Source of the DNA: an uncultured delta proteobacterium
GTDB lineage: Bacteria; Myxococcota_A; Polyangia; Polyangiales; Ga0077539
DNA length: 64,000 nt
Direction: 5' to 3'
Assembly (NCBI GenBank): GCA_903845045.1
Contig: CAIMWA010000340.1
Span: 1,880 to 65,879, forward strand
The translations under genes and the position numbers were made by a program. Positions 9,131-57,499 of the stretch are shown piece after piece. Below the pieces are notes generated by a model. The model did not search any database, had not been told where the DNA came from, and saw only the letters and a program-made list of their open reading frames with translations. Every line of letters starts with the position of its first letter. Position 1 is the stretch's first letter.

Positions 9131-10441
9131 GTGAGCGATCGGCCGACCCTGCTCTGCGTCGACGACGAGCCGACGGTGCTCGCGAGCCTGAAGGAGCAGT
9201 TCCGCCGCCTCTTCGACGGGCGCTTTCGCGTCGAGGTCGCGCAGGACGCCGCCGAGGCCCTCGAGGTCATCGCGGAGCTCGAGCACGACGGCCACGACCT
9301 CGCGGTGATCGTCAGCGACCACATCATGCCCGGCGTGAAGGGCGACGAGCTGCTCATCCAGGTGCACGCGCGGCTGCCCCGCACGCGCAAGATCCTGCTG
9401 ACGGGCCAGGCCGGCCTCGACGCCGTCGCCAACGTCGTGAACCACGGGGCGCTCTACCGCTACATCGCGAAGCCCTGGCAGCGCGACGACCTCGAGCTGA
9501 CGATCCAGGAGGCCGTGCGCAGCTACCTGCAGGAGCTCGAGGTGGAGCGCCAGCGGCAGGAGATCCTCGACGGCCACGCGGCGGCGCGGCGCTTCGTGCC
9601 CTTCGAATTCCTACGGCTGCTCGGCCGCCAGCGCCTCGGCGAGGTCACGCTGCACGACCACGTCGAGCAGCAGCTCAGCATCTTCTTCTCGGACATCCGC
9701 TCGTACACGACCCTCGTCGAGGGACGGACGCCGAAGCAGAACTTCGATTTCATCAACGAGTACCTCGGCTTCATGGAGCCCGCGATCCTCGACGAGGGCG
9801 GCTTCATCGACAGCTTCATGGGCGACGGCATCATGGCGCTCTTCGAGGGCGGCGGAGACCGCGTGGTGCGCGCCGGCATCGCGTCGCTGCGCGCCCTCGA
9901 CCGCTTCAACGCCGTGCGCGTCGCGCGCGGCGAGCCGGCGATCCGCATCGGCATCGGGATCAACAGCGGCCCGCTGATGCTCGGCGTCATCGGCGGCAAG
10001 GAGCGCCTCAACGCCGGCGTCATCGGCGATCCGGTCAACACGGCGGCGCGCCTCGAGACGTTCTCGAAGCAGGTCGGCGCGTCGATGCTCGTGAGCGAAG
10101 ACACCGTCGCGCGCCTCGATGACCCCGGCGCCTACGCGCTGCGTCCGGTGGACCACGTGCGCTTGAAGGGCAAGAGCCGCCCGGTGCGCGTCTACGAGGT
10201 GCTCGACGCGCTTCCCGACGCCGAGCGAGCGCGCAAGCTCGCGACCCGCGACGACCTCGCCGCCGCCCGCGCGGCGATGGCCGACGGCGACCTCGGCGCG
10301 GCGCTCGCGCACCTGGCGTCGGCAAGGGACCTCGACGCGGTGGACCCGGTGATCACCCGGGCCCTCGCCCGCTGCCGCGCGTTCATCGCCGGCGGCGTGC
10401 CCGAAGGCTGGGACGGCGTGACCGACCTCGAGGACAAGTGA
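9131..10441 (+). CDS. Response-regulator receiver fused to class III adenylate/guanylate cyclase
   Basis: GTG start at 9131 (VSDRPTLLCVDDEPTVLASL...). REC motifs: DHIMPGVKGDEL, YIAKPW. Cyclase motifs: IFFSDIRSYTTL, GDGIMALF, GDPVNTAARLE. The upstream part of the track ORF is Arg-rich noise. Confidence 0.9.
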   Translation: MSDRPTLLCVDDEPTVLASLKEQFRRLFDGRFRVEVAQDAAEALEVIAELEHDGHDLAVIVSDHIMPGVKGDELLIQVHARLPRTRKILLTGQAGLDAVANVVNHGALYRYIAKPWQRDDLELTIQEAVRSYLQELEVERQRQEILDGHAAARRFVPFEFLRLLGRQRLGEVTLHDHVEQQLSIFFSDIRSYTTLVEGRTPKQNFDFINEYLGFMEPAILDEGGFIDSFMGDGIMALFEGGGDRVVRAGIASLRALDRFNAVRVARGEPAIRIGIGINSGPLMLGVIGGKERLNAGVIGDPVNTAARLETFSKQVGASMLVSEDTVARLDDPGAYALRPVDHVRLKGKSRPVRVYEVLDALPDAERARKLATRDDLAAARAAMADGDLGAALAHLASARDLDAVDPVITRALARCRAFIAGGVPEGWDGVTDLEDK

Positions 10442-52170: not shown

Positions 52171-53862
52171 ATGCGTTTGCTCGTTCCGGCCTTGGTGTTC
52201 GGTCTCTGCAGCCTCGTCGGCTGCGCATCCGGGGAGTCCAACGTGCAGGTCGTCACCGACGCCGGCGCGACGGACCTCGGCTCACCCGTCGACACGCCGT
52301 CCACGGGCGTGAACTGCGGCGCGGTCACGCAGTGCGGCACGTGCACGAGCCTCGGTCCGTGCGGCTGGTGCGCCGGCACGAACACCTGCGTGGCCGGCTC
52401 GGCGACGGGTCCTGCGGTGGGAGCGTGCGCGGGGGCGTGGTCGTTCTCGCCTGCGATGTGTCCTGCTCCCGTCGACGCGGGCACGCCGCCGAGAGACACC
52501 GGAACTGCCACGGACACCGGCACCGTGGCGACCGATGCGGGCATGGCCGTCGACGCGGGCGACCCCTGCGCGACGAACACCACCTGCGGGAGCTGCACCG
52601 CCGAGTCGTCGTGCGGCTTTTGCCGGGGTACCGGCCGCTGCCAGACGGGCACCCGCGACGCGCCCACGGTGGGCGGAGCGTGCTCGTCGGGCTGGTCGTG
52701 GCTCTCGACGGACTGCTCGTCCACCGACGCCGGCACCGCGACGGACGCCGGCGCCCTCGCCGACGCGGGGGATCCGTGTGCGAGCGCCACGAACTGCGCG
52801 ACGTGCACGCAGCGCAGCCAGTGCGGGTGGTGCCCCGGCGCGAACCGCTGCCTCACCGGCACCGGCACCGGACCGAACAGCGGCGCGGCGACCTGCGGCA
52901 CCTGGGCCTGGTACTCGGGTCAGTGCAGCGGATCCGACGGTGGAACTTCGACCGACGCGGGCGCGGCGACGGACGCCGGCGACCCCTGCGTGAGCGCGAC
53001 ATCGTGTTCGACGTGCACCGCGCGCAGCCAGTGCGGGTGGTGCCCGGGCGCGAACCGCTGCGCCGTCGGCACCTCGTCGGGCCCGAGCGGCACCGTCGCG
53101 GCCTGCGGCACCTGGGCCTGGATCTCGTCGGCGTGCACCGCGACGGACGCGGGGGTCGTGAACGACGCCGGCACGCCGAGCATCCCGGGCTTCGGCAACC
53201 CCGCGAGCTTCAACCCCGCGGACGTGGCCCGCGCGTGCCCCGCCGGCGCGACGCTGCGCCTCGCCGTCGCCCGCGTCTATGCGACGCCGCGCAAGCCCTC
53301 GGGCTCGCCGTGGGACGGCATCGCGGGCATCAGCGACTTCGTGTGTCCTGCCGCCGCGGACCAGGTGCGCACGGCGCTGCGCGACCAGCTCAACAACCAG
53401 CGCATGGGCGTCGGCACCACCGTCGACACCATCGTGGGCGACGCCTTCCACGGCGTCGTGGCGTCGCAGTGCGGCACCGCCATCGACTGGTTCCTCGGGC
53501 GCTGGGAGGGGCCGGACATGTTCGCGCAGCTCCACAACCCGGCCACGGCGACGAGCACCGTGTGGCGCACGCCGACGGAGAACGACAGCTGGGAGGCCCC
53601 GCGCGTGGGCGCCACCTGGCCCACGGCCTACGTCGACATCCCGTGCTCCGCGCTCGGCGCGACGCTCTACGGCCTCGACGTGCGTGACCACGACCCGATC
53701 CCGCCGGACGACCCCGTCGGCCAGATCGACTTCCGCGGCAGCGAGGTGTCACCGCACGCGATCTGCACGGGATGGGCGTTCCACGACGGCGTCGACGGGC
53801 TGGCGGGCGTGCTCTTCACCGCCCACGTCACCGGCGGCACGCAGAACTGCACCGGCCTCTGA
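52171..53862 (+). CDS. Lipoprotein with four tandem PSI (plexin-semaphorin-integrin)-like 8-Cys domains and a C-terminal beta domain (C2-like by eye)
   Basis: ATG at 52171. Lipobox: FGLCSLVGC. Four units of D-P-C-x5-C-x2-C-x5-C-G-[WF]-C-x5-C-...-C-...-W-x-W-...-C span about 52309-53136. C-terminal segment: ...LYGLDVRDHDPIPPDDPVGQIDF. Confidence 0.85.
   Translation: MRLLVPALVFGLCSLVGCASGESNVQVVTDAGATDLGSPVDTPSTGVNCGAVTQCGTCTSLGPCGWCAGTNTCVAGSATGPAVGACAGAWSFSPAMCPAPVDAGTPPRDTGTATDTGTVATDAGMAVDAGDPCATNTTCGSCTAESSCGFCRGTGRCQTGTRDAPTVGGACSSGWSWLSTDCSSTDAGTATDAGALADAGDPCASATNCATCTQRSQCGWCPGANRCLTGTGTGPNSGAATCGTWAWYSGQCSGSDGGTSTDAGAATDAGDPCVSATSCSTCTARSQCGWCPGANRCAVGTSSGPSGTVAACGTWAWISSACTATDAGVVNDAGTPSIPGFGNPASFNPADVARACPAGATLRLAVARVYATPRKPSGSPWDGIAGISDFVCPAAADQVRTALRDQLNNQRMGVGTTVDTIVGDAFHGVVASQCGTAIDWFLGRWEGPDMFAQLHNPATATSTVWRTPTENDSWEAPRVGATWPTAYVDIPCSALGATLYGLDVRDHDPIPPDDPVGQIDFRGSEVSPHAICTGWAFHDGVDGLAGVLFTAHVTGGTQNCTGL
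52309..53136 (+). repeat. Coding tandem repeats (4 PSI-like units); units 3 and 4 share near-identical DNA cores 210 nt apart
   Basis: 52812-52851 and 53022-53061 match (gcgcagccagtgcgggtggtgccc[c/g]ggcgcgaaccgctgc, 1 mismatch). 52892-52911 equals 53102-53121 (cctgcggcacctgggcctgg). Confidence 0.85.
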
Positions 53863-53909
53863 TCCCCCCCGGTGGATGCGCCGGGCCCGCCTGCGCTACC
53901 ACCTCACGC

Positions 53910-54476
53910 GTGAAGCCCCCATCGCAGCGCGCCGTGCGCGTCGCCCTCGTCGCGGTGGTCCTCGCGGCCCTCGTCGTGGCGTGGCGTGCGGGCCTGCTGG
54001 CCCACTTCTCGAGCGCTGCGGAGGTGCGCCGCTCGCTCCTCGCGCTGGGCCCTTGGGGCTACGTCGGCTTCATCGCAGCGTACGCAGCGCTGCAGCCCTT
54101 CGGCGTCCCCGGCACGGTGTTCATCCTCGCGGCGCCGCTCGTGTGGCCGTGGCCCGTGGCCTTCGCCGTGTCCATGGTCGGAACGATGGCCGCCAGCGTC
54201 GTGGGCTTCTCCTTCGCGCGCTTCGTCGCCCGCGACTGGGTGTCGACGCGCATCCCCGACCGCTTCCGCCGCTGGGACGACGCCCTCGCGCGCCGGGCCT
54301 TCGCGACGGTCTTCACGCTGCGCCTGGTGTTCTGGATGCCTCCGCTCCTCCACGCATTCTTCGGCGTCTCGAAGGTGCGCGCCTCGACGCACTTCTGGGC
54401 GTCGGCCCTCGGCTACGTCGCGCCGCTGCTCGCCGTGAGCTACTTCGGACAGCGCCTCTTCGAGCTCTTCCGCTGA
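53910..54476 (+). CDS. TVP38/TMEM64 (DedA-related, SNARE-associated) membrane protein
   Basis: GTG at 53910, in frame with track ORF 53772. Sequence: ...LGPWGYVGFIAAYAALQPFGVPGTVFILAAPLVWPWPVAFAVSMVGTMAASVVGFSFARFVARDWV... Confidence 0.8.
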   Translation: MKPPSQRAVRVALVAVVLAALVVAWRAGLLAHFSSAAEVRRSLLALGPWGYVGFIAAYAALQPFGVPGTVFILAAPLVWPWPVAFAVSMVGTMAASVVGFSFARFVARDWVSTRIPDRFRRWDDALARRAFATVFTLRLVFWMPPLLHAFFGVSKVRASTHFWASALGYVAPLLAVSYFGQRLFELFR

Positions 54477-54613
54477 CGCGTGGCGGCCCCGCCGCGTGCG
54501 ACGCGCGCCCCTCGGTCCGTGGGTCCGCGGTGCGTGCGGAGTCCGTCGCCGCGCGCGCGAAGCGGCCTGGAATCCGTGGGGCCGCCCCGCGACGCCGAGG
54601 CCGCGCCCCGGCG

Positions 54614-54682
54614 CAAGATGATTGGAGGTCCCAAGATCGATTTCGTATGGGGAATTTAAGGGAAAATAATCGAAGCGAAGGC
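54614..54682. promoter_or_regulatory. AT-rich island (probable promoter/regulatory region) upstream of the small-ORF operon
   Basis: caagatgattggaggtcccaagatcgatttcgtatggggaatttaagggaaaataatcgaagcgaag is by far the most AT-rich stretch I saw in the window. It lies in the 250-nt gap between 54476 and 54727. TTGCGA (54689-54694), N17, GGGCAT (54712-54717) lies just before the ATG at 54727. Confidence 0.35.
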
Positions 54683-54726
54683 CCATCGTTGCGAAGGCCC
54701 TCGGCGAGGGCGGGCATGCACACGCC

Positions 54727-54921
54727 ATGTCGAACATCCAAGGCGTCAACGGTCAGAGCTCGGTCAACATCATCCGCGAGGCAGCGCCCCCGCCGCCGCC
54801 GGCCCCCAAGGCCGCGGCCACGAGCCAGCCCTCGAACCCGCTCGAAGGCCTCCAGGGCCTGGTGAACCAGATCTCCTCGTCGGTGCACGCGAGCGCGATC
54901 CCCGCTCACCAGAACTGGTAG
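54727..54921 (+). CDS. Small 64-aa protein, candidate scaffold/precursor peptide (C-terminal ...AIPAHQNW)
   Basis: MSNIQGVNGQSSVNIIREAAPPPPPAPKAAATSQPSNPLEGLQGLVNQISSSVHASAIPAHQNW*. It has only 1 Arg and is rich in N/Q/S/I, which is opposite to GC-driven noise ORFs. Most codons end in G/C. It has no Cys and no signal peptide. The stop lies 13 nt before the next gene's GTG. Confidence 0.6.
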   Translation: MSNIQGVNGQSSVNIIREAAPPPPPAPKAAATSQPSNPLEGLQGLVNQISSSVHASAIPAHQNW

Positions 54922-54934
54922 CGCGCGTCGGTCC

Positions 54935-55627
54935 GTGCGCCCATTCGGCGTCGCCCGCTACGCAGAGCACCGCACGCGGCTCGTCGACGGCGACGGTCGC
55001 GTCTTCGCGGGGCACCTCGACGAGTCCGCGGGCGGCGTCCCGCGCGCCGTCGTCGTCATCCACGACTTCTACGGGCTGACGCAGCCCGTTCGCACCGCGG
55101 CCACGCGCCTCGCCGCCGACGGCTTCGTCGTCTTCGCGCCGGACCTCTACCGCGGGCGCGTGGCCACGAGCCCCGCCGACGCCGGCGCCCTCGCATCGCA
55201 GCTCGCATGGGACCAGGTGGCGTTGGAGCTCGGCCTCGTCGTCGCGGCGCTTCGACGGCGGAGCGCGGGCATGAAGGTGGCGACGCTCGGCTTCGCCATG
55301 GGCGGCGCGGCATCGCTCGTGGCGGCGGCGGCCCTGCCCGACCTCGCGGCGGCGGTGACCTACTACGGCGTCCCGCAGGACGTCGTGCTCCGCAACCGGC
55401 GCGTGCGCGTGCTCGGCCACTTCGGCGCGCGCGACGTGAAGGTGACGCCTCCACGCGTCGACGCCCTCGCCGCGATGTTCGCGACGCACGGCATCGACGG
55501 CCGGCTGCACCGCTACGACGCCGCAGGAAACTTCGCGAACCCGCTGCTCCCCGAGGTCTTCGACGCCGCCGCCGCCGACACGGCGTGGCAGCGGACGCTC
55601 GCGTTCCTCCACGAGACGCTCGGCTGA
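54935..55627 (+). CDS. Dienelactone-hydrolase-fold protein with substituted catalytic Cys and His
   Basis: Aligns by eye along its whole length with Pseudomonas DLH (ClcD): AVVVIHDFYGLT, FAPDLYRG, VATLGFAMGGAASL (vs VGLVGYCLGGALAF), VLGHFGARDVKV (vs ALFHMGGQDHFV), RYDAAGNFAN (vs WYEEAGHSFA). Confidence 0.85.
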   Translation: MRPFGVARYAEHRTRLVDGDGRVFAGHLDESAGGVPRAVVVIHDFYGLTQPVRTAATRLAADGFVVFAPDLYRGRVATSPADAGALASQLAWDQVALELGLVVAALRRRSAGMKVATLGFAMGGAASLVAAAALPDLAAAVTYYGVPQDVVLRNRRVRVLGHFGARDVKVTPPRVDALAAMFATHGIDGRLHRYDAAGNFANPLLPEVFDAAAADTAWQRTLAFLHETLG

Positions 55628-55651: not shown

Positions 55652-57499
55652 ATGACGGCGACGAAGCGATCGGGGTTCGAGGTGTCTCTGCACGCGGGTG
55701 CGGCGGGTTCGCTGCCGGGTGCGCTGGAGGTCGACGTGGGCAGCGACCTCCCGGTGGCCTTCGACGGCCTGCGCGCGCTCCTCGACGCGCTCGGCGAGCG
55801 GGCGCCGCAGCACCTCGACGCGATGCGTGAGGGCTACGCGGCGGAGTGGAACGTCCTCTTCCCGCGACGCCACGTCGACGGTCCGGACCTCCTCGCCATC
55901 GCCGACGCGCCGAACCAGCGGCGGCTCTTTCGCGAGTCCGAGCAGGTCTTTCGCGTGCTGCGTGCGGCCGCGCGCACCGTCGTCGACGCCCTGCGCGACC
56001 TCGATGCGCCGCTGGTGCTCCGCAACACCGGCGCGTGCGACCTCGTGAGCCTCCGAGGGCTCATGTACGCCGGTCAGCTCGCCGCGCTCGACGGCGTTCG
56101 CGCCGAGGTGTCCCTGGGCGAATGGGACGCCGCGCCGGCCTTCGCCGCACGCTCCTTCGCGGCGTCGGGCCGCGAGCTTCGTTCGCGCGTGGCAGCGCGT
56201 CTCGGAGCCTCGCCGCGAGCGGGATCGCGGGACGCCGCGTGCGTCTCCACGGCGGGGCGCCGGTCGACGGTGGAGGGATCGCATCTGGCCCTCGCGGTGC
56301 GCGCCGATGCCCCGCCGGTGCAGCGCATGGCGGCGGCGCTCCTGGCGCTGCGGGCGTGCTTCTTCTCGACGCACTACGAGGGCGCGGCGCTCGCAGCCGA
56401 CACCGCGCTGGACCTCCTCGACGCCTCTTCGACGGCGTGGACGCCGAGCGCGCTCCTCGCGGCGTGGGACGCGCTCGCCGACGACCGCTTCGACGTGCCG
56501 ATGCTCGAGATCGACCGCGCGCACCTCGCCGAGGGCACCGGCCTTCGCGCGCTCGTGCTGACCCACCGCGGCGTGGCGCAGGCCTTCGCGGGCTTCGGTG
56601 AGGCCGCGAACGCATCCTTCGAGGCCGCCCTCGCCGTCGCCCCGTCGCCGGAGATCGCGGCGGACCTTCACCTGTATCGCGCGCTCGTCGCCCTCAAGGG
56701 CCGCGGTGACCTCGCGAGCGCCGAGTCCGAGGTGGCTGCCGGACTGGCGTGCCTCGCGGGACGTCCTCGCGACGTTGCGGCGCTGCATGCCGCGTGGCTG
56801 CACAACCTCGAGGCGCTGGTGCACTTCCGCCGCAACGACCTCGACGCCGCGCACCTCGCCGAGGAGCGCTCCATGGCGAGCATCGACGGCGTGCCCGGGG
56901 CGTCGGCGGTGCACCTGAAGACGAACCTCGTCTCGAACTTCAGCGTGCTCTACGAGCGCCGCGGCGACCACGACACCGCGCTGCGCATCTGGGACACCTT
57001 CGCCGCGCTCAACGCGAAGGTGCGCAGCGACGCCCTCGACAAGGTGCACCTCCATCGCCGCGGGGCGCTGCTGCGCGGGCGCGGCGACGTCGACGAGGGC
57101 CTGGCGCTGCTTCGCGGGGCGCGCGAGAAGGCCCTCGCCACCGGCGACGTCTTTCACGCCGAGGTCCTCGCCGGGAGCATCGCGCGGACGCATCTCGATC
57201 GCGGCGAAGGGAGCGACCGCGCCGAGGCCGCGACGTGGTACCGCCTCGCCGCCGAAGGGGCGCGCGCGTGCGGCGACTGCGTGCGGCTCGCGCAGGACCT
57301 CGCCGGCGTCGCGCTCGCCGAGGGCACCACGAACCTCGACGAGGCCCGCGCGGTGCTTCCGCTGGATCGGACGCACCCGCGCACCGTGCTCGACCCCCTC
57401 GCCGCCGCCCTCGACGACGGCTCGCCGGCGGCCCTTCGCGCCGCGATGCCGCGCCCGCAGACGAAGCTCGGGCGCCCCTTCGTCCTCGTCACCGTGTAG
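55652..57499 (+). CDS. 615-aa helical-repeat (TPR-like) protein of unknown function
   Basis: ATG at 55652, 24 nt after the upstream stop. The composition is Ala/Leu-rich and helical, with TPR-like segments (e.g. HLYRALVALKGRGDLASAESEVAAGLACL..., LHNLEALVHFRRNDLDAAHLAEE..., NFSVLYERRGDHDTALRIWD). No family is recognised. Confidence 0.65.
   Translation: MTATKRSGFEVSLHAGAAGSLPGALEVDVGSDLPVAFDGLRALLDALGERAPQHLDAMREGYAAEWNVLFPRRHVDGPDLLAIADAPNQRRLFRESEQVFRVLRAAARTVVDALRDLDAPLVLRNTGACDLVSLRGLMYAGQLAALDGVRAEVSLGEWDAAPAFAARSFAASGRELRSRVAARLGASPRAGSRDAACVSTAGRRSTVEGSHLALAVRADAPPVQRMAAALLALRACFFSTHYEGAALAADTALDLLDASSTAWTPSALLAAWDALADDRFDVPMLEIDRAHLAEGTGLRALVLTHRGVAQAFAGFGEAANASFEAALAVAPSPEIAADLHLYRALVALKGRGDLASAESEVAAGLACLAGRPRDVAALHAAWLHNLEALVHFRRNDLDAAHLAEERSMASIDGVPGASAVHLKTNLVSNFSVLYERRGDHDTALRIWDTFAALNAKVRSDALDKVHLHRRGALLRGRGDVDEGLALLRGAREKALATGDVFHAEVLAGSIARTHLDRGEGSDRAEAATWYRLAAEGARACGDCVRLAQDLAGVALAEGTTNLDEARAVLPLDRTHPRTVLDPLAAALDDGSPAALRAAMPRPQTKLGRPFVLVTV

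Follow-up and report, generated by a model that had tools for sequence, protein, structure and literature searches.

Is the short open reading frame (ORF) at positions 54727-54921 of the forward strand a gene at all and, if so, what is done to its product? The window, i.e. the whole stretch of 64,000 nucleotides analyzed here, is 73% GC, and many of the ORFs listed for it are shadow ORFs. Since ORF length alone is not significant in DNA of this composition, the reality of the 64-aa gene was settled by conservation, as detailed below. The initial annotation, made from the letters alone, had read the ORF as a candidate scaffold peptide for PEARL chemistry of the ammosamide type and had named a LanB-like and a DUF692 enzyme encoded downstream as the possible modifying enzymes.

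Results

The 64-aa ORF and its upstream region

Read from its ATG to a TAG stop, the ORF translates as MSNIQGVNGQSSVNIIREAAPPPPPAPKAAATSQPSNPLEGLQGLVNQISSSVHASAIPAHQNW, a peptide of 64 residues with one Arg, no Cys and a PPPPP tract. An N-terminal MSxIxGV motif is followed by a Pro/Ala/Ser-rich linker, a predicted amphipathic helix, PLEGLQGLVNQI, and a tail ending in Trp. The unusual composition pointed out earlier holds upon comparison, N, Q, S and I together making up 40.6% of the residues versus 6.5-9.2% in the neighboring genes, and Arg 1.6% versus 7-10%. Also as first noted, nearly all codons end in G or C (59 of 64); GC content by codon position is 0.62/0.52/0.92, and the same pattern is found in the downstream genes. 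With two acidic and two basic residues, the peptide is near neutral. It has no hydrophobic N-terminal segment, in agreement with the earlier reading that it carries neither Cys nor a signal peptide, and thus differs from bufferin-type substrates, which have a signal peptide and Cys motifs.

The TAG stop lies 13 nt ahead of the GTG of the next gene at 54935, exactly as first reported. The AT-rich region described directly upstream of the peptide gene was likewise found: the intergenic stretch 54610-54699, to which no strand is assigned, has a GC content of 0.50 compared to 0.73 for the whole window, and the 100-nt bin 54600-54699 (GC 0.55) is the lowest within 53.5-62.5 kb. This stretch is a candidate promoter or operator region, a function that we infer. 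A tandem 16-nt direct repeat, ATCGAAGCGAAGGCCC / ATCGTTGCGAAGGCCC, occupies positions 54669-54700. A scan of the upstream region for sigma-70 consensus sites and terminators came back empty, and an Rfam search of it returned no match.

Conservation of the peptide

Searches of Pfam and NCBIfam with the 64-aa peptide gave no match, a word-indexed search for homologues, queried with nothing but the peptide, returned only the peptide itself, and phmmer, run exhaustively against 1.84 billion representatives, yielded two true relatives, two Pro-rich artefacts and nothing more. Conservation upstream of homologous operons, especially that of the C-terminus, had been proposed as the test of the ORF. 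In loci retrieved via the PEARL gene alone, a peptide homologue was present in five of five distinct syntenic loci, sharing both its stop position and its Trp-ending C-terminus with the window ORF. Scanning metagenomes for the motif brought in 13 further distinct members. In all, about 20 distinct homologues of 59-67 aa were found, all of them ending in AIPAHQ[N/S]W-stop and all originating from uncultured Myxococcota or from soil, peat and freshwater metagenomes; the window's own peptide was called on 22 contigs. All 18 motif matches that also displayed the family's upstream helix were followed, in this order, by genes for a dienelactone hydrolase (DLH)-like protein, an AmmC1/BhaC1-type (C1) protein and a PEARL. 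None of 24 chance motif matches had the helix, the DLH-like gene, the C1 gene or the PEARL gene. In every homologous locus the peptide gene is the first of the cassette.

The C-terminal octapeptide, AIPAHQNW in the window (codons 54895-54918, forward strand), ends as AIPAHQ[N/S]W-stop in 5/5 motif-independent homologues and 18/18 aligned members, and its codons vary synonymously. Because the near-zero pN of these last eight codons in the metagenome set is partly a product of the search pattern, we relied on the five loci found independently of the motif, together with codons -28 to -9, which lie outside the searched motif and where pN/pS was 0.27/0.60, indicative of purifying selection. From its sequence, codon bias, homologues and purifying selection, the 64-aa ORF is a genuine, conserved small gene of the precursor or scaffold type, tied to a PEARL-like enzyme. 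Conservation across the family is highest at the last residue, Trp64, which we propose to be the site of modification. In many members of the family, the linker includes a His-rich stretch (HHHH).

The 615-aa AmmC1/BhaC1 homologue and the DLH-fold protein

Two genes located between the peptide gene and the LanB-like gene had been passed over by the initial annotation. With these included, the locus reads as a four-gene cassette, peptide, DLH-fold protein, 615-aa AmmC1/BhaC1 homologue and a single PEARL, whose order is kept as far as the contigs reach.

The 615-aa protein (55652-57499, forward strand) was unannotated and had no match in Pfam, NCBIfam or PDB sequences; it could be identified only from an alignment in the supplement of PMC9850906. 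Using reference sequences rebuilt by OCR from Fig. S8 of that paper, blastp matched it to M. fulvus GEN09191 (3e-58), AmmC1 (2e-21) and BhaC1 (8e-17), with identities over partial alignments to these rebuilt references of 34% to AmmC1 and 27% to BhaC1. Full-length alignment revealed the shared motifs AP..RRL.RESEQ and HLK.NL.SN.SVL, a Lys equivalent to K391 of BhaC1 and a C-terminal K(L/M)xRPF. Thus, by homology, shared motifs and the Lys391 equivalent, the cassette includes a putative enzyme of the AmmC1/BhaC1 type found in pyrroloiminoquinone-type pathways, and with this AmmC1/BhaC1 homologue the ammosamide-type link suggested at the outset is stronger than had been supposed. Homologues of the 615-aa protein adjoin PEARLs in 50+ loci. 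A related protein, marked by the motif SERRLSRESE, is encoded at two loci, L079 and L087; the exact N-terminal strings of the Pseudovibrio and Rhizobium BhaC1 homologues given in the supplement of PMC9850906 matched none of the ORFs of these two loci.

Characterized members of the AmmC1/BhaC1 family contain TPRs and are FMN-dependent. BhaC1 and AmmC1 modify only a C-terminal Trp and recognize a helix at a fixed distance from it, Lys391 being close to the Trp (PMC9850906; PMC11117183). By homology, the 615-aa protein is predicted to trihydroxylate the C-terminal Trp to an o-hydroxy-p-quinone. BhaC1 requires Leu-Ala before the Trp, where the window's peptide family has Gln-Asn/Ser, and it rejected Asn at -2 (SI of PMC9850906), so that recognition must differ in the window system.

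The other overlooked gene (54935-55627, forward strand) encodes a 230-aa DLH-fold protein (PF01738, 1.4e-32) in which the nucleophilic Cys is replaced by Ala (GFAMGG), a substitution invariant in five orthologues of 49-56% identity. Its PDB relatives display GFCMGG or GFCYGG together with GH, compared to GFAMGG and GN here, the His of the triad thus being missing. The protein is probably not a classical hydrolase, judging from these residues. Present at all cassette loci and missing from all multi-PEARL clusters, its gene is cassette-specific. Neither TldD/E nor any other peptidase is encoded in the conserved cassette, which thus departs from pearlin pathways in which a dedicated protease frees the modified residue and lets the scaffold be reused, and neither is a glycine oxidase (BhaG/Amm14). 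Given that the sole hydrolase-like protein of the cassette is devoid of a nucleophile, no release step is evident; release of the modified residue by a host protease is possible.

The PEARL

The last gene of the cassette (57506-59647, forward strand) encodes a 713-aa PEARL-type protein that matches PF04738 only, i.e. the LanB N-terminal (glutamylation-like) domain, with no elimination domain. Its recognition as LanB-like by the initial annotation, and that of the following gene product as DUF692/MNIO (PF05114), were both correct. Its only PDB relative is TbtB (6EC7). As in pearlin systems, a small ribosomal peptide adjoins the PEARL, a synteny kept in every homologous locus that is long enough, and the C-terminus of the peptide, the proposed site of chemistry, is conserved. 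Peptide-PEARL synteny and the invariant Trp-ending C-terminus bear out the original scaffold reading; a PEARL scaffold peptide with its chemistry at the terminal Trp is supported at the sequence level.

It is very improbable that the small conserved protein is not a substrate but, for example, a regulatory or chaperone subunit of the enzymes, or that it is a classical LanB substrate undergoing Ser/Thr dehydration. Some members of the family do harbor Ser/Thr near their C-terminus (SSS, ANT), but no Ser/Thr column is conserved across the family, and the usual Thr position is occupied by Ala in the window (...HAS versus ...NTR). The cassette genes scanned encode neither a SpaB_C elimination domain nor LanC. 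Also against these readings, conservation peaks at the last residue, and the gene neighbors that of a protein from a family working on C-terminal Trp. With no conserved Ser/Thr column and no elimination domain or cyclase, the locus does not look like a class I lanthipeptide system, and this reading was rejected.

Ligation by PEARLs depends on ATP and aminoacyl-tRNA, and the ATP-site residues specific to these enzymes are exemplified by Asp542 and Arg803 of TglB. The specificity of a PEARL is not predictable from its clade, AmmB1 using Leu-tRNA and AmmB4 Arg-tRNA. In a neighbor-joining (NJ) tree of 63 PEARLs, the clade of the window PEARL grouped with that of the PEARLs that occupy the amm11 position in ammosamide/lymphostin-like clusters with 100/100 bootstrap support, and a sister clade from bha-like clusters joined at 98/100. 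Sequence identities follow the same pattern, 36-43% to the amm11-position group versus 23-35% to all others, and the window PEARL did not group with the amm8-, amm9- or amm18-position paralogues. Locus L048 is colinear with amm7-amm15, as it includes a hypothetical Amm10-like gene, TldD and Glyoxalase_3 (= Amm15). The LanB-like genes of amm are Amm8, 9, 11 and 18 (PMC8210675). Gene order and the naming convention led us to equate the amm11 position with AmmB3, the Gly-tRNA-dependent amine donor; position is the sole basis for assigning the bha-like sister clade to BhaB5. Both AmmB3 and BhaB5 take Gly from Gly-tRNA and attach it to a quinone, and the adduct proceeds to an aminoquinone even without an enzyme (PMC11117183).

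This grouping bears on a different use of the same cassette, in which the PEARL would carry out the canonical reaction, C-terminal extension. Extension is the founding activity of PEARLs (PMC11117183; PMC12424672), the amino acid and site used by a PEARL are not yet readable from sequence, and the initial annotation had allowed for a residue appended after the Trp. The 100/100 grouping with the amm11-position paralogues, rather than with those of amm8, amm9 or amm18, and the identities to match, speak against it, and we regard extension as unlikely. Moreover, because BhaC1 leaves a non-terminal Trp unmodified, extension as a first step would block the C1 step.

The neighboring MNIO and DUF2063 genes

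The genes for the PEARL, the MNIO and a partner protein with a DUF2063 domain are on the same strand and follow one another with GTGA stop/start overlaps, at 59644-59647 between PEARL and MNIO and at 60462-60465 for the next pair. One transcript is thus feasible, and the 3-thiaglutamate pathway offers a precedent (TglB/TglHI; PMC9303977, PMC9016710) for a route in which the LanB-like enzyme would add Cys, or another residue, after the Trp, and the DUF692/MNIO and its partner would then modify the peptide. Such a route was part of the initial annotation. We give it only the slimmest chance, as the MNIO and DUF2063 genes are absent from every other syntenic cassette locus; unlike in tgl, the MNIO and its partner are not conserved with the PEARL and the scaffold peptide. 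The peptide itself is devoid of Cys, and its PEARL grouped with the amm11-position clade and with no Cys-adding type that we could identify. Of the proposal that the terminal Trp is modified by the LanB-like and DUF692 enzymes, the invariant Trp and the syntenic PEARL stand, and the part given to the DUF692 enzyme finds no support.

The MNIO scored 313.8 at the BufB equivalog, above the cut-off of 310. We take its DUF2063 partner to be of the type reported with signal-peptide precursors, unlike TglI. Elsewhere in Polyangiales, MNIO homologues of 72-85% identity have unrelated upstream genes and no PEARL nearby, and are always accompanied by a convergent gene for a Cys-rich lipoprotein. The window has this gene too, at 61319-62149 on the reverse strand and convergent with the MNIO and DUF2063 genes; its product, a candidate substrate of their own, harbors an export signal and Cys motifs (CxGxNxCxG-like). 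The candidate substrate, a lipoprotein of ~250-276 aa, matches BufA2 weakly (E 0.031; 14.5 bits versus a cut-off of 60). An overlapping low-complexity ORF on the forward strand (61344-62234, 296 aa) was rejected as a shadow of the reverse-strand gene. The MNIO, DUF2063 and lipoprotein genes together form a separate, widespread module of Polyangiales that looks bufferin-like. In the window genome, the overlap of the MNIO start with the PEARL stop makes co-transcription, and hence some functional link, possible.

Discussion

The most probable explanation of the locus, and one in which we have reasonable confidence, is that the product of the ORF serves as carrier (scaffold) peptide in a minimal pathway of the pearlin type, made up of four genes, in which the encoded terminal Trp would be oxidized to a quinone and then aminated. 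The AmmC1-like enzyme would bind the conserved helix (D.L.ALQ.L..QIE...), thread the tail of ~11 residues into its active site and hydroxylate the indole of the ribosomally encoded Trp three times, oxidation yielding the o-hydroxy-p-quinone. Using ATP, the PEARL would next activate the vinylogous carboxylate of the quinone and condense it with the amine of an aminoacyl-tRNA, most likely glycyl-tRNA by analogy with AmmB3 and BhaB5, and the Gly adduct would decay or be processed to an aminoquinone. The DLH-fold protein may bind the peptide or the quinone, or assist in adduct processing without a nucleophile. The end product could be a released modified Trp or the modified peptide itself. Because the Trp is encoded, a PEARL for its appending would not be needed, unlike in amm, bha and lym.

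The cassette resembles amm, with which we group the colinear lymphostin-type clusters of Salinispora (AmmA = Amm6), in that a small scaffold peptide gene adjoins genes for a C1-type enzyme, here the AmmC1-like 615-aa protein, and for PEARLs, here a member of the amm11-position orthogroup, and in the chemistry at a C-terminal Trp proposed here. In contrast to the near-neutral window peptide with its encoded Trp, AmmA is acidic, ends in ...IAPLALA and receives its Trp from the PEARL AmmB2. The AmmA-type peptides of the loci that we fetched are likewise acidic, end in ...IAPLA(L)(A) and are all devoid of W. A profile of the window peptide family did not detect AmmA-type peptides, and the window peptide is not an acidic AmmA/BhaA-type scaffold with a PEARL-appended Trp. 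Further, the window cassette has a single PEARL, compared to four in amm, and lacks the glycine oxidase, TldD/E protease, dipeptidase, halogenase and other enzymes of that pathway; amm, in turn, has no equivalent of the DLH-fold protein.

The bha system of Bacillus halodurans shares the same enzyme families with the window. There, BhaC1 turns the Trp, only when C-terminal, into an o-hydroxy-p-quinone, to which BhaB5 then adds Gly from Gly-tRNA (PMC9850906, PMC11117183). BhaA needs two PEARLs, for Ala and then Trp, before BhaC1 acts, whereas the window Trp is encoded. The likeness to 3-thiaglutamate biosynthesis (TglA, TglB, TglHI) consists of a scaffold peptide with a PEARL, and of the same-strand MNIO gene after the latter; TglB, however, adds Cys and TglH works with TglI, while the window MNIO is BufB-like, has a DUF2063 partner and is not conserved with the cassette. 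Any likeness to the bufferin/oxazolin systems (BufA-BufB-BufC; HvfA-B-C) is confined to the neighboring module, with its BufB-level MNIO, DUF2063 partner and exported candidate substrate with Cys motifs, the latter being a convergent lipoprotein of ~250-276 aa and not a short upstream BufA.

We raise, tentatively, a further possibility, namely that the cassette makes a peptide-bound, Trp-derived (amino)hydroxyquinone rather than a released molecule, which might serve as a redox cofactor, a metal ligand or a reactive warhead. If so, the system could be the ancestral state from which the long amm and bha routes with PEARL-appended Trp arose. The encoded Trp, the lack of a conserved protease, the nucleophile-less hydrolase-fold partner and the HHHH found in many linkers are compatible with a peptide-bound quinone, for which the hydrolase-fold partner would be a binding or processing subunit.

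Returning to the minimal pathway with an encoded Trp, all characterized pyrroloiminoquinone-type pearlin pathways build, to our knowledge, the ...Ala-Trp end by one to three PEARL steps before Trp chemistry begins. What is new here is a Trp that is encoded rather than appended, a single PEARL, a non-acidic peptide and a cassette free of proteases. Comprising four genes in ~5 kb, the cassette could serve as a minimal test system for the conversion of Trp to a hydroxyquinone and for tRNA-dependent amination, and would make available a second recognition sequence, non-acidic in this case, for tagging proteins with a quinone at the C-terminus. An encoded-Trp cassette also bears on why other pathways append their Trp, and the nucleophile-less α/β-hydrolase-fold protein is proposed as a new conserved pathway partner. 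With regard to genome mining, neighboring genes whose stop and start codons even overlap gave a false hint of a PEARL-MNIO hybrid pathway. Finally, the tail of the window peptide has a Pro at -6 from the Trp, as does the K(I/V)APLALAW tail of AmmA/BhaA (PMC9850906).

A rare peptide family with an invariant C-terminal tryptophan

The peptide ORF at 54727-54921 (+), whose 64 codons translate as MSNIQGVNGQSSVNIIREAAPPPPPAPKAAATSQPSNPLEGLQGLVNQISSSVHASAIPAHQNW*, encodes a single Arg, no Cys and one PPPPP tract, with Asn, Gln, Ser and Ile making up 40.6% of the residues versus 6.5-9.2% in the adjacent genes. Fifty-nine of the 64 codons end in G or C, and GC content by codon position (0.62/0.52/0.92) resembles that of the neighboring genes. 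A 13-nt gap separates its stop codon from the GTG at 54935, and the region's GC minimum (0.50, compared to 73% for the window) lies just upstream, at 54610-54699. The composition, codon bias, gap and AT-rich upstream DNA reported in the initial annotation were thus all reproduced. Since GC-rich DNA of this kind abounds in shadow ORFs, dozens of which were listed in the window, a 64-codon ORF is on its own weak evidence of a gene, and conservation provided the real test.

Used as a query in a word-indexed homologue search, the peptide matched only itself, the identical sequence being found on 22 contigs. Homologues were reached instead through the LanB-like protein, by inspecting the gene neighborhoods of the proteins closest to it (48-55% identity). 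The order small ORF, dienelactone hydrolase (DLH)-like gene, gene for a protein of ~615-650 residues and LanB-like gene recurred at the homologous loci L007, L009 and L011, as well as at L012, L014 and L046 identified by genome scan, and the small ORF ended in ...AIPAHQ(N/S)W-stop in all five distinct sequences, none of which had been found using the peptide as a query. A degenerate DNA pattern for AIPAHQxW-stop, run against a metagenome collection, yielded 42 matches. Eighteen of them displayed Asn or Ser at position -2 from the C-terminal end together with an upstream LQxLxxQIEGAANT helix, and all 18 preceded a DLH-like gene, then a homologue of the 615-aa protein, then a PEARL gene (LanB N-terminal domain without elimination domain), as far as the contigs extended. 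The remaining 24 differed at -2, bore no resemblance to the family farther upstream and were accompanied by none of the cassette genes.

On alignment, the 18 distinct peptides (59-67 aa) begin with the motif MSxIxGVG, continue through a variable linker of Pro, Ala, Ser and Thr into a helix of the form D.L.ALQ.L..QIE(G/S)(A/S)ANT(R/K/Q), and end without exception in AIPAHQ(N/S)W. The search pattern left codons -28 to -9 unconstrained, and pN/pS there was 0.27/0.60. Many family members harbor a Shine-Dalgarno-like AAGGAG or GGAGG 6-10 nt 5' of the ATG, and the gap between the peptide and DLH-like genes is short wherever it could be read. An exhaustive phmmer search added one member, P0245; the family is rare. 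The peptide gene is real, and the proposal that the small ORF is a genuine gene with a conserved C terminus is upheld by both the cassette loci and the metagenome pattern matches.

In many members (L093, L095, L100, L120, L124, L129 and P0245), a His-rich tract (HHHH, HHHHH or QHHHH), which might bind metal or act in recognition, immediately follows MSxIxGVG; the window peptide has GQSSVN at this place. The cassette of L124 (10409-12504) is decayed: its peptide and DLH-like genes are intact, but only ~63 codons of the C1 gene remain and run into the last third of the PEARL (query residues 427-712), equivalent to an internal deletion of ~3 kb. Directly 5' of the peptide gene, L010 (513-2199) and L011 (2161-3932) carry an ECF-type sigma factor gene (Sigma70_r2/r4), followed in L011 by a FecR/TPR anti-sigma-like gene, and an unannotated 460-aa gene takes the sigma factor's place in L009 (2290-4003). 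In the window, a VTT/DedA-family membrane protein gene (53772-54476) and a gene for a PAS/GGDEF protein lie upstream instead. Within the AT-rich stretch, 27-58 nt 5' of the peptide ATG, a 16-nt direct repeat in tandem (ATCGAAGCGAAGGCCC / ATCGTTGCGAAGGCCC; 54669-54700) is a candidate regulator-binding site.

Relationship of the cassette enzymes to ammosamide-type tryptophan-modifying enzymes

Of the enzymes expected downstream, the LanB-like protein (57506-59647, +; 713 aa) and the DUF692 protein were indeed present, but two intervening genes had been overlooked, encoding a 230-aa dienelactone hydrolase-family protein (PF01738; 54935-55627, +) and a 615-aa protein devoid of Pfam or NCBIfam matches (55652-57499, +).

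Searches of Pfam, NCBIfam and PDB sequences with the 615-aa protein returned no match, and at over 50 of the loci retrieved, in Salinispora, Streptomyces, Actinomadura, Myxococcus and Brevibacillus among others, its homologues adjoin PEARLs. BhaC1 and AmmC1 are TPR-containing, FMN-binding proteins whose own BLAST searches "returned proteins of unknown function"; they trihydroxylate only the C-terminal Trp of their scaffold, and the product oxidizes to an o-hydroxy-p-quinone (PMC9850906, PMC11117183). Against sequences rebuilt at OCR quality from the supplementary alignment of PMC9850906, blastp gave 3e-58 with the M. fulvus homologue (35% identity over 585 aa), 2e-21 with AmmC1 and 8e-17 with BhaC1. 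Full-length alignment revealed the shared motifs AP..RRL.RESEQ, HLK.NL.SN.SVL and a C-terminal K(L/M)xRPF, and conservation of the Lys equivalent to BhaC1 Lys391, which the published model puts beside the Trp and which forms a cross-link with the quinone (PMC11117183). By these alignments, the 615-aa protein is homologous to the C1 family. A further C1-like paralogue, divergent in sequence and carrying the motif SERRLSRESE (~30% identity over ~300 aa to the window protein), was found in proteobacterial and ktedonobacterial clusters of bha-like type (L070, 10051-12399; L079, 7126-8916; L087, 10076-11908) and differs from the Pseudovibrio and Rhizobium homologues named in PMC9850906.

The 713-aa PEARL has Lant_dehydr_N, the LanB N-terminal domain, and no other domain, and its sole PDB relative is TbtB, a split-LanB glutamylation subunit. 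Neighbor joining of 63 PEARL-type proteins, drawn from 24 loci, placed the window clade with the PEARLs at 8001-10250 of actinomycete and myxobacterial clusters (bootstrap 100/100), to which the window protein is 36-43% identical versus 23-35% to all other paralogues. In Salinispora, locus L048 reads C1, PEARL, PEARL, a 489-aa hypothetical protein, PEARL, TldD-like and, farther on, a Glyoxalase_3 protein. The LanB-like genes of amm are Amm8, 9, 11 and 18 (PMC8210675), Amm10 is a hypothetical protein kept in lymphostin clusters, Amm12/13 are TldD/E and Amm15 is a PF13468 protein (PMC12424672); the L048 order corresponds to amm7-amm15. Together, the tree, the identities and this gene-order match place the window PEARL in the amm11-position family as a predicted orthologue of that enzyme, which we infer from naming order to be AmmB3. 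AmmB3 and BhaB5 attach glycine to the oxidized indole at the expense of ATP and Gly-tRNA, and the adduct is converted to an aminoquinone efficiently with a glycine oxidase but also without enzyme (PMC11117183).

The peptide family, the invariance of its terminal Trp and a synteny of four genes are observed, and the core of our interpretation is that the only invariant end of the peptide is a C-terminal Trp and that the peptide gene always lies two genes 5' of the gene for an enzyme family specific for C-terminal Trp. The C1-like enzyme would probably oxidize Trp64 to a hydroxyquinone, and there is about an even chance that the PEARL would then aminate the ring from Gly-tRNA. That the PEARL would extend the peptide's carboxylate instead appears unlikely.

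Among the loci compared, the DLH-like protein is confined to the peptide-C1-PEARL cassette. Its nucleophile elbow reads GFAMGG in five of five orthologues (49-56% identity), in contrast to GFCMGG or GFCYGG in structurally characterized relatives, and the position of the triad His is occupied by Asn or Gly; the Asp is kept, as are what we take to be the equivalents of E36 and R81 of the Pseudomonas DLH sequence. A classical hydrolase activity is thus improbable and, with nucleophile and triad His replaced, a release step is not assignable to the protein. Glycine oxidase is absent from the cassette; a role of the DLH-like protein in binding the peptide or quinone, or as a non-nucleophilic aid in conversion of the Gly adduct, is speculative.

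Comparison with classical scaffold peptides

AmmB2 or BhaB7 adds the Trp in the amm and bha pathways (PMC11117183). The scaffolds of the multi-PEARL clusters compared are acidic and end in ...IAPLA (L037, L041, L043, L044, L077), ...IAPLAL (L079, L086, L087) or ...IAPLALA (L066, L076), none encoding a Trp, whereas peptides of the window family are near neutral and have the Trp encoded. The varied truncation points of APLALAW suggest that the number of PEARL-appended residues would differ between clusters (3, 2 or 1). A profile of the window family did not detect AmmA-type peptides, and the two share only a Pro six residues ahead of the Trp (K-I-A-P-L-A-L-A-W in AmmA-type, K-A-I-P-A-H-Q-S-W in the window family). 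In the literature, of which our coverage was incomplete, neither the peptide family nor the cassette, nor any scaffold with an encoded Trp, was found described.

An independent MNIO module next to the cassette

Downstream of the PEARL gene lie genes for the MNIO/DUF692 enzyme (59644-60465, +; 273 aa; NCBIfam BufB, 313.8 bits versus a cut-off of 310) and a DUF2063 protein (60462-61340, +; 292 aa). The suggestion that the former acts on the 64-aa peptide found no support, as every other cassette compared lacks an MNIO and MNIO homologues sit in unrelated contexts. The MNIO is far more conserved and widespread than the cassette, with thousands of homologues, the best 120 of which are 72-96% identical and many from Polyangiales. 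At L132-L134, the genes 5' of the MNIO are unrelated (DNA polymerase I, ribH/nusB and a hypothetical), and MNIO, DUF2063 and a convergent gene recur. The sole argument for a link is the overlapping GTGA junctions at the MNIO boundaries in the window, where cassette and MNIO genes may be co-transcribed. The MNIO module is independent of the cassette, a neighbor rather than a partner.

In the window, this three-gene module conserved in Polyangiales spans 59644-62149, the convergent gene (61319-62149, -) overlapping the end of the DUF2063 gene. Its product, 49-53% identical to those of L132 and L133, is a lipoprotein (~250-276 aa) sharing with them a lipoprotein-type signal (ALLTAALGGLLCFA.SC) and, after an Asp/Ala/Ser-rich linker, a Cys-rich C-terminal domain, HPHCGGxN(S/T)CxGFSFD...HxCAxLNTCTG(Y/F)(S/T)CV. 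It matches BufA2 weakly (E 0.031), and DUF2063-type partners pair with signal-peptide precursors, TglH having another partner type (MNIO survey, PMC12452194). The lipoprotein probably serves as an MNIO substrate of bufferin-like type, long and lipid-anchored, its location on the opposite strand being unusual compared to bufferin operons. The 296-aa low-complexity ORF at 61344-62234 (+), liable to mislead gene callers, was rejected on codon-position GC and homologues as a shadow of this minus-strand gene. Downstream of the lipoprotein gene, on the same strand, lies a gene for a 590-aa carboxylesterase-family protein (PF00135, E 2.6e-100; 62189-63961, -).
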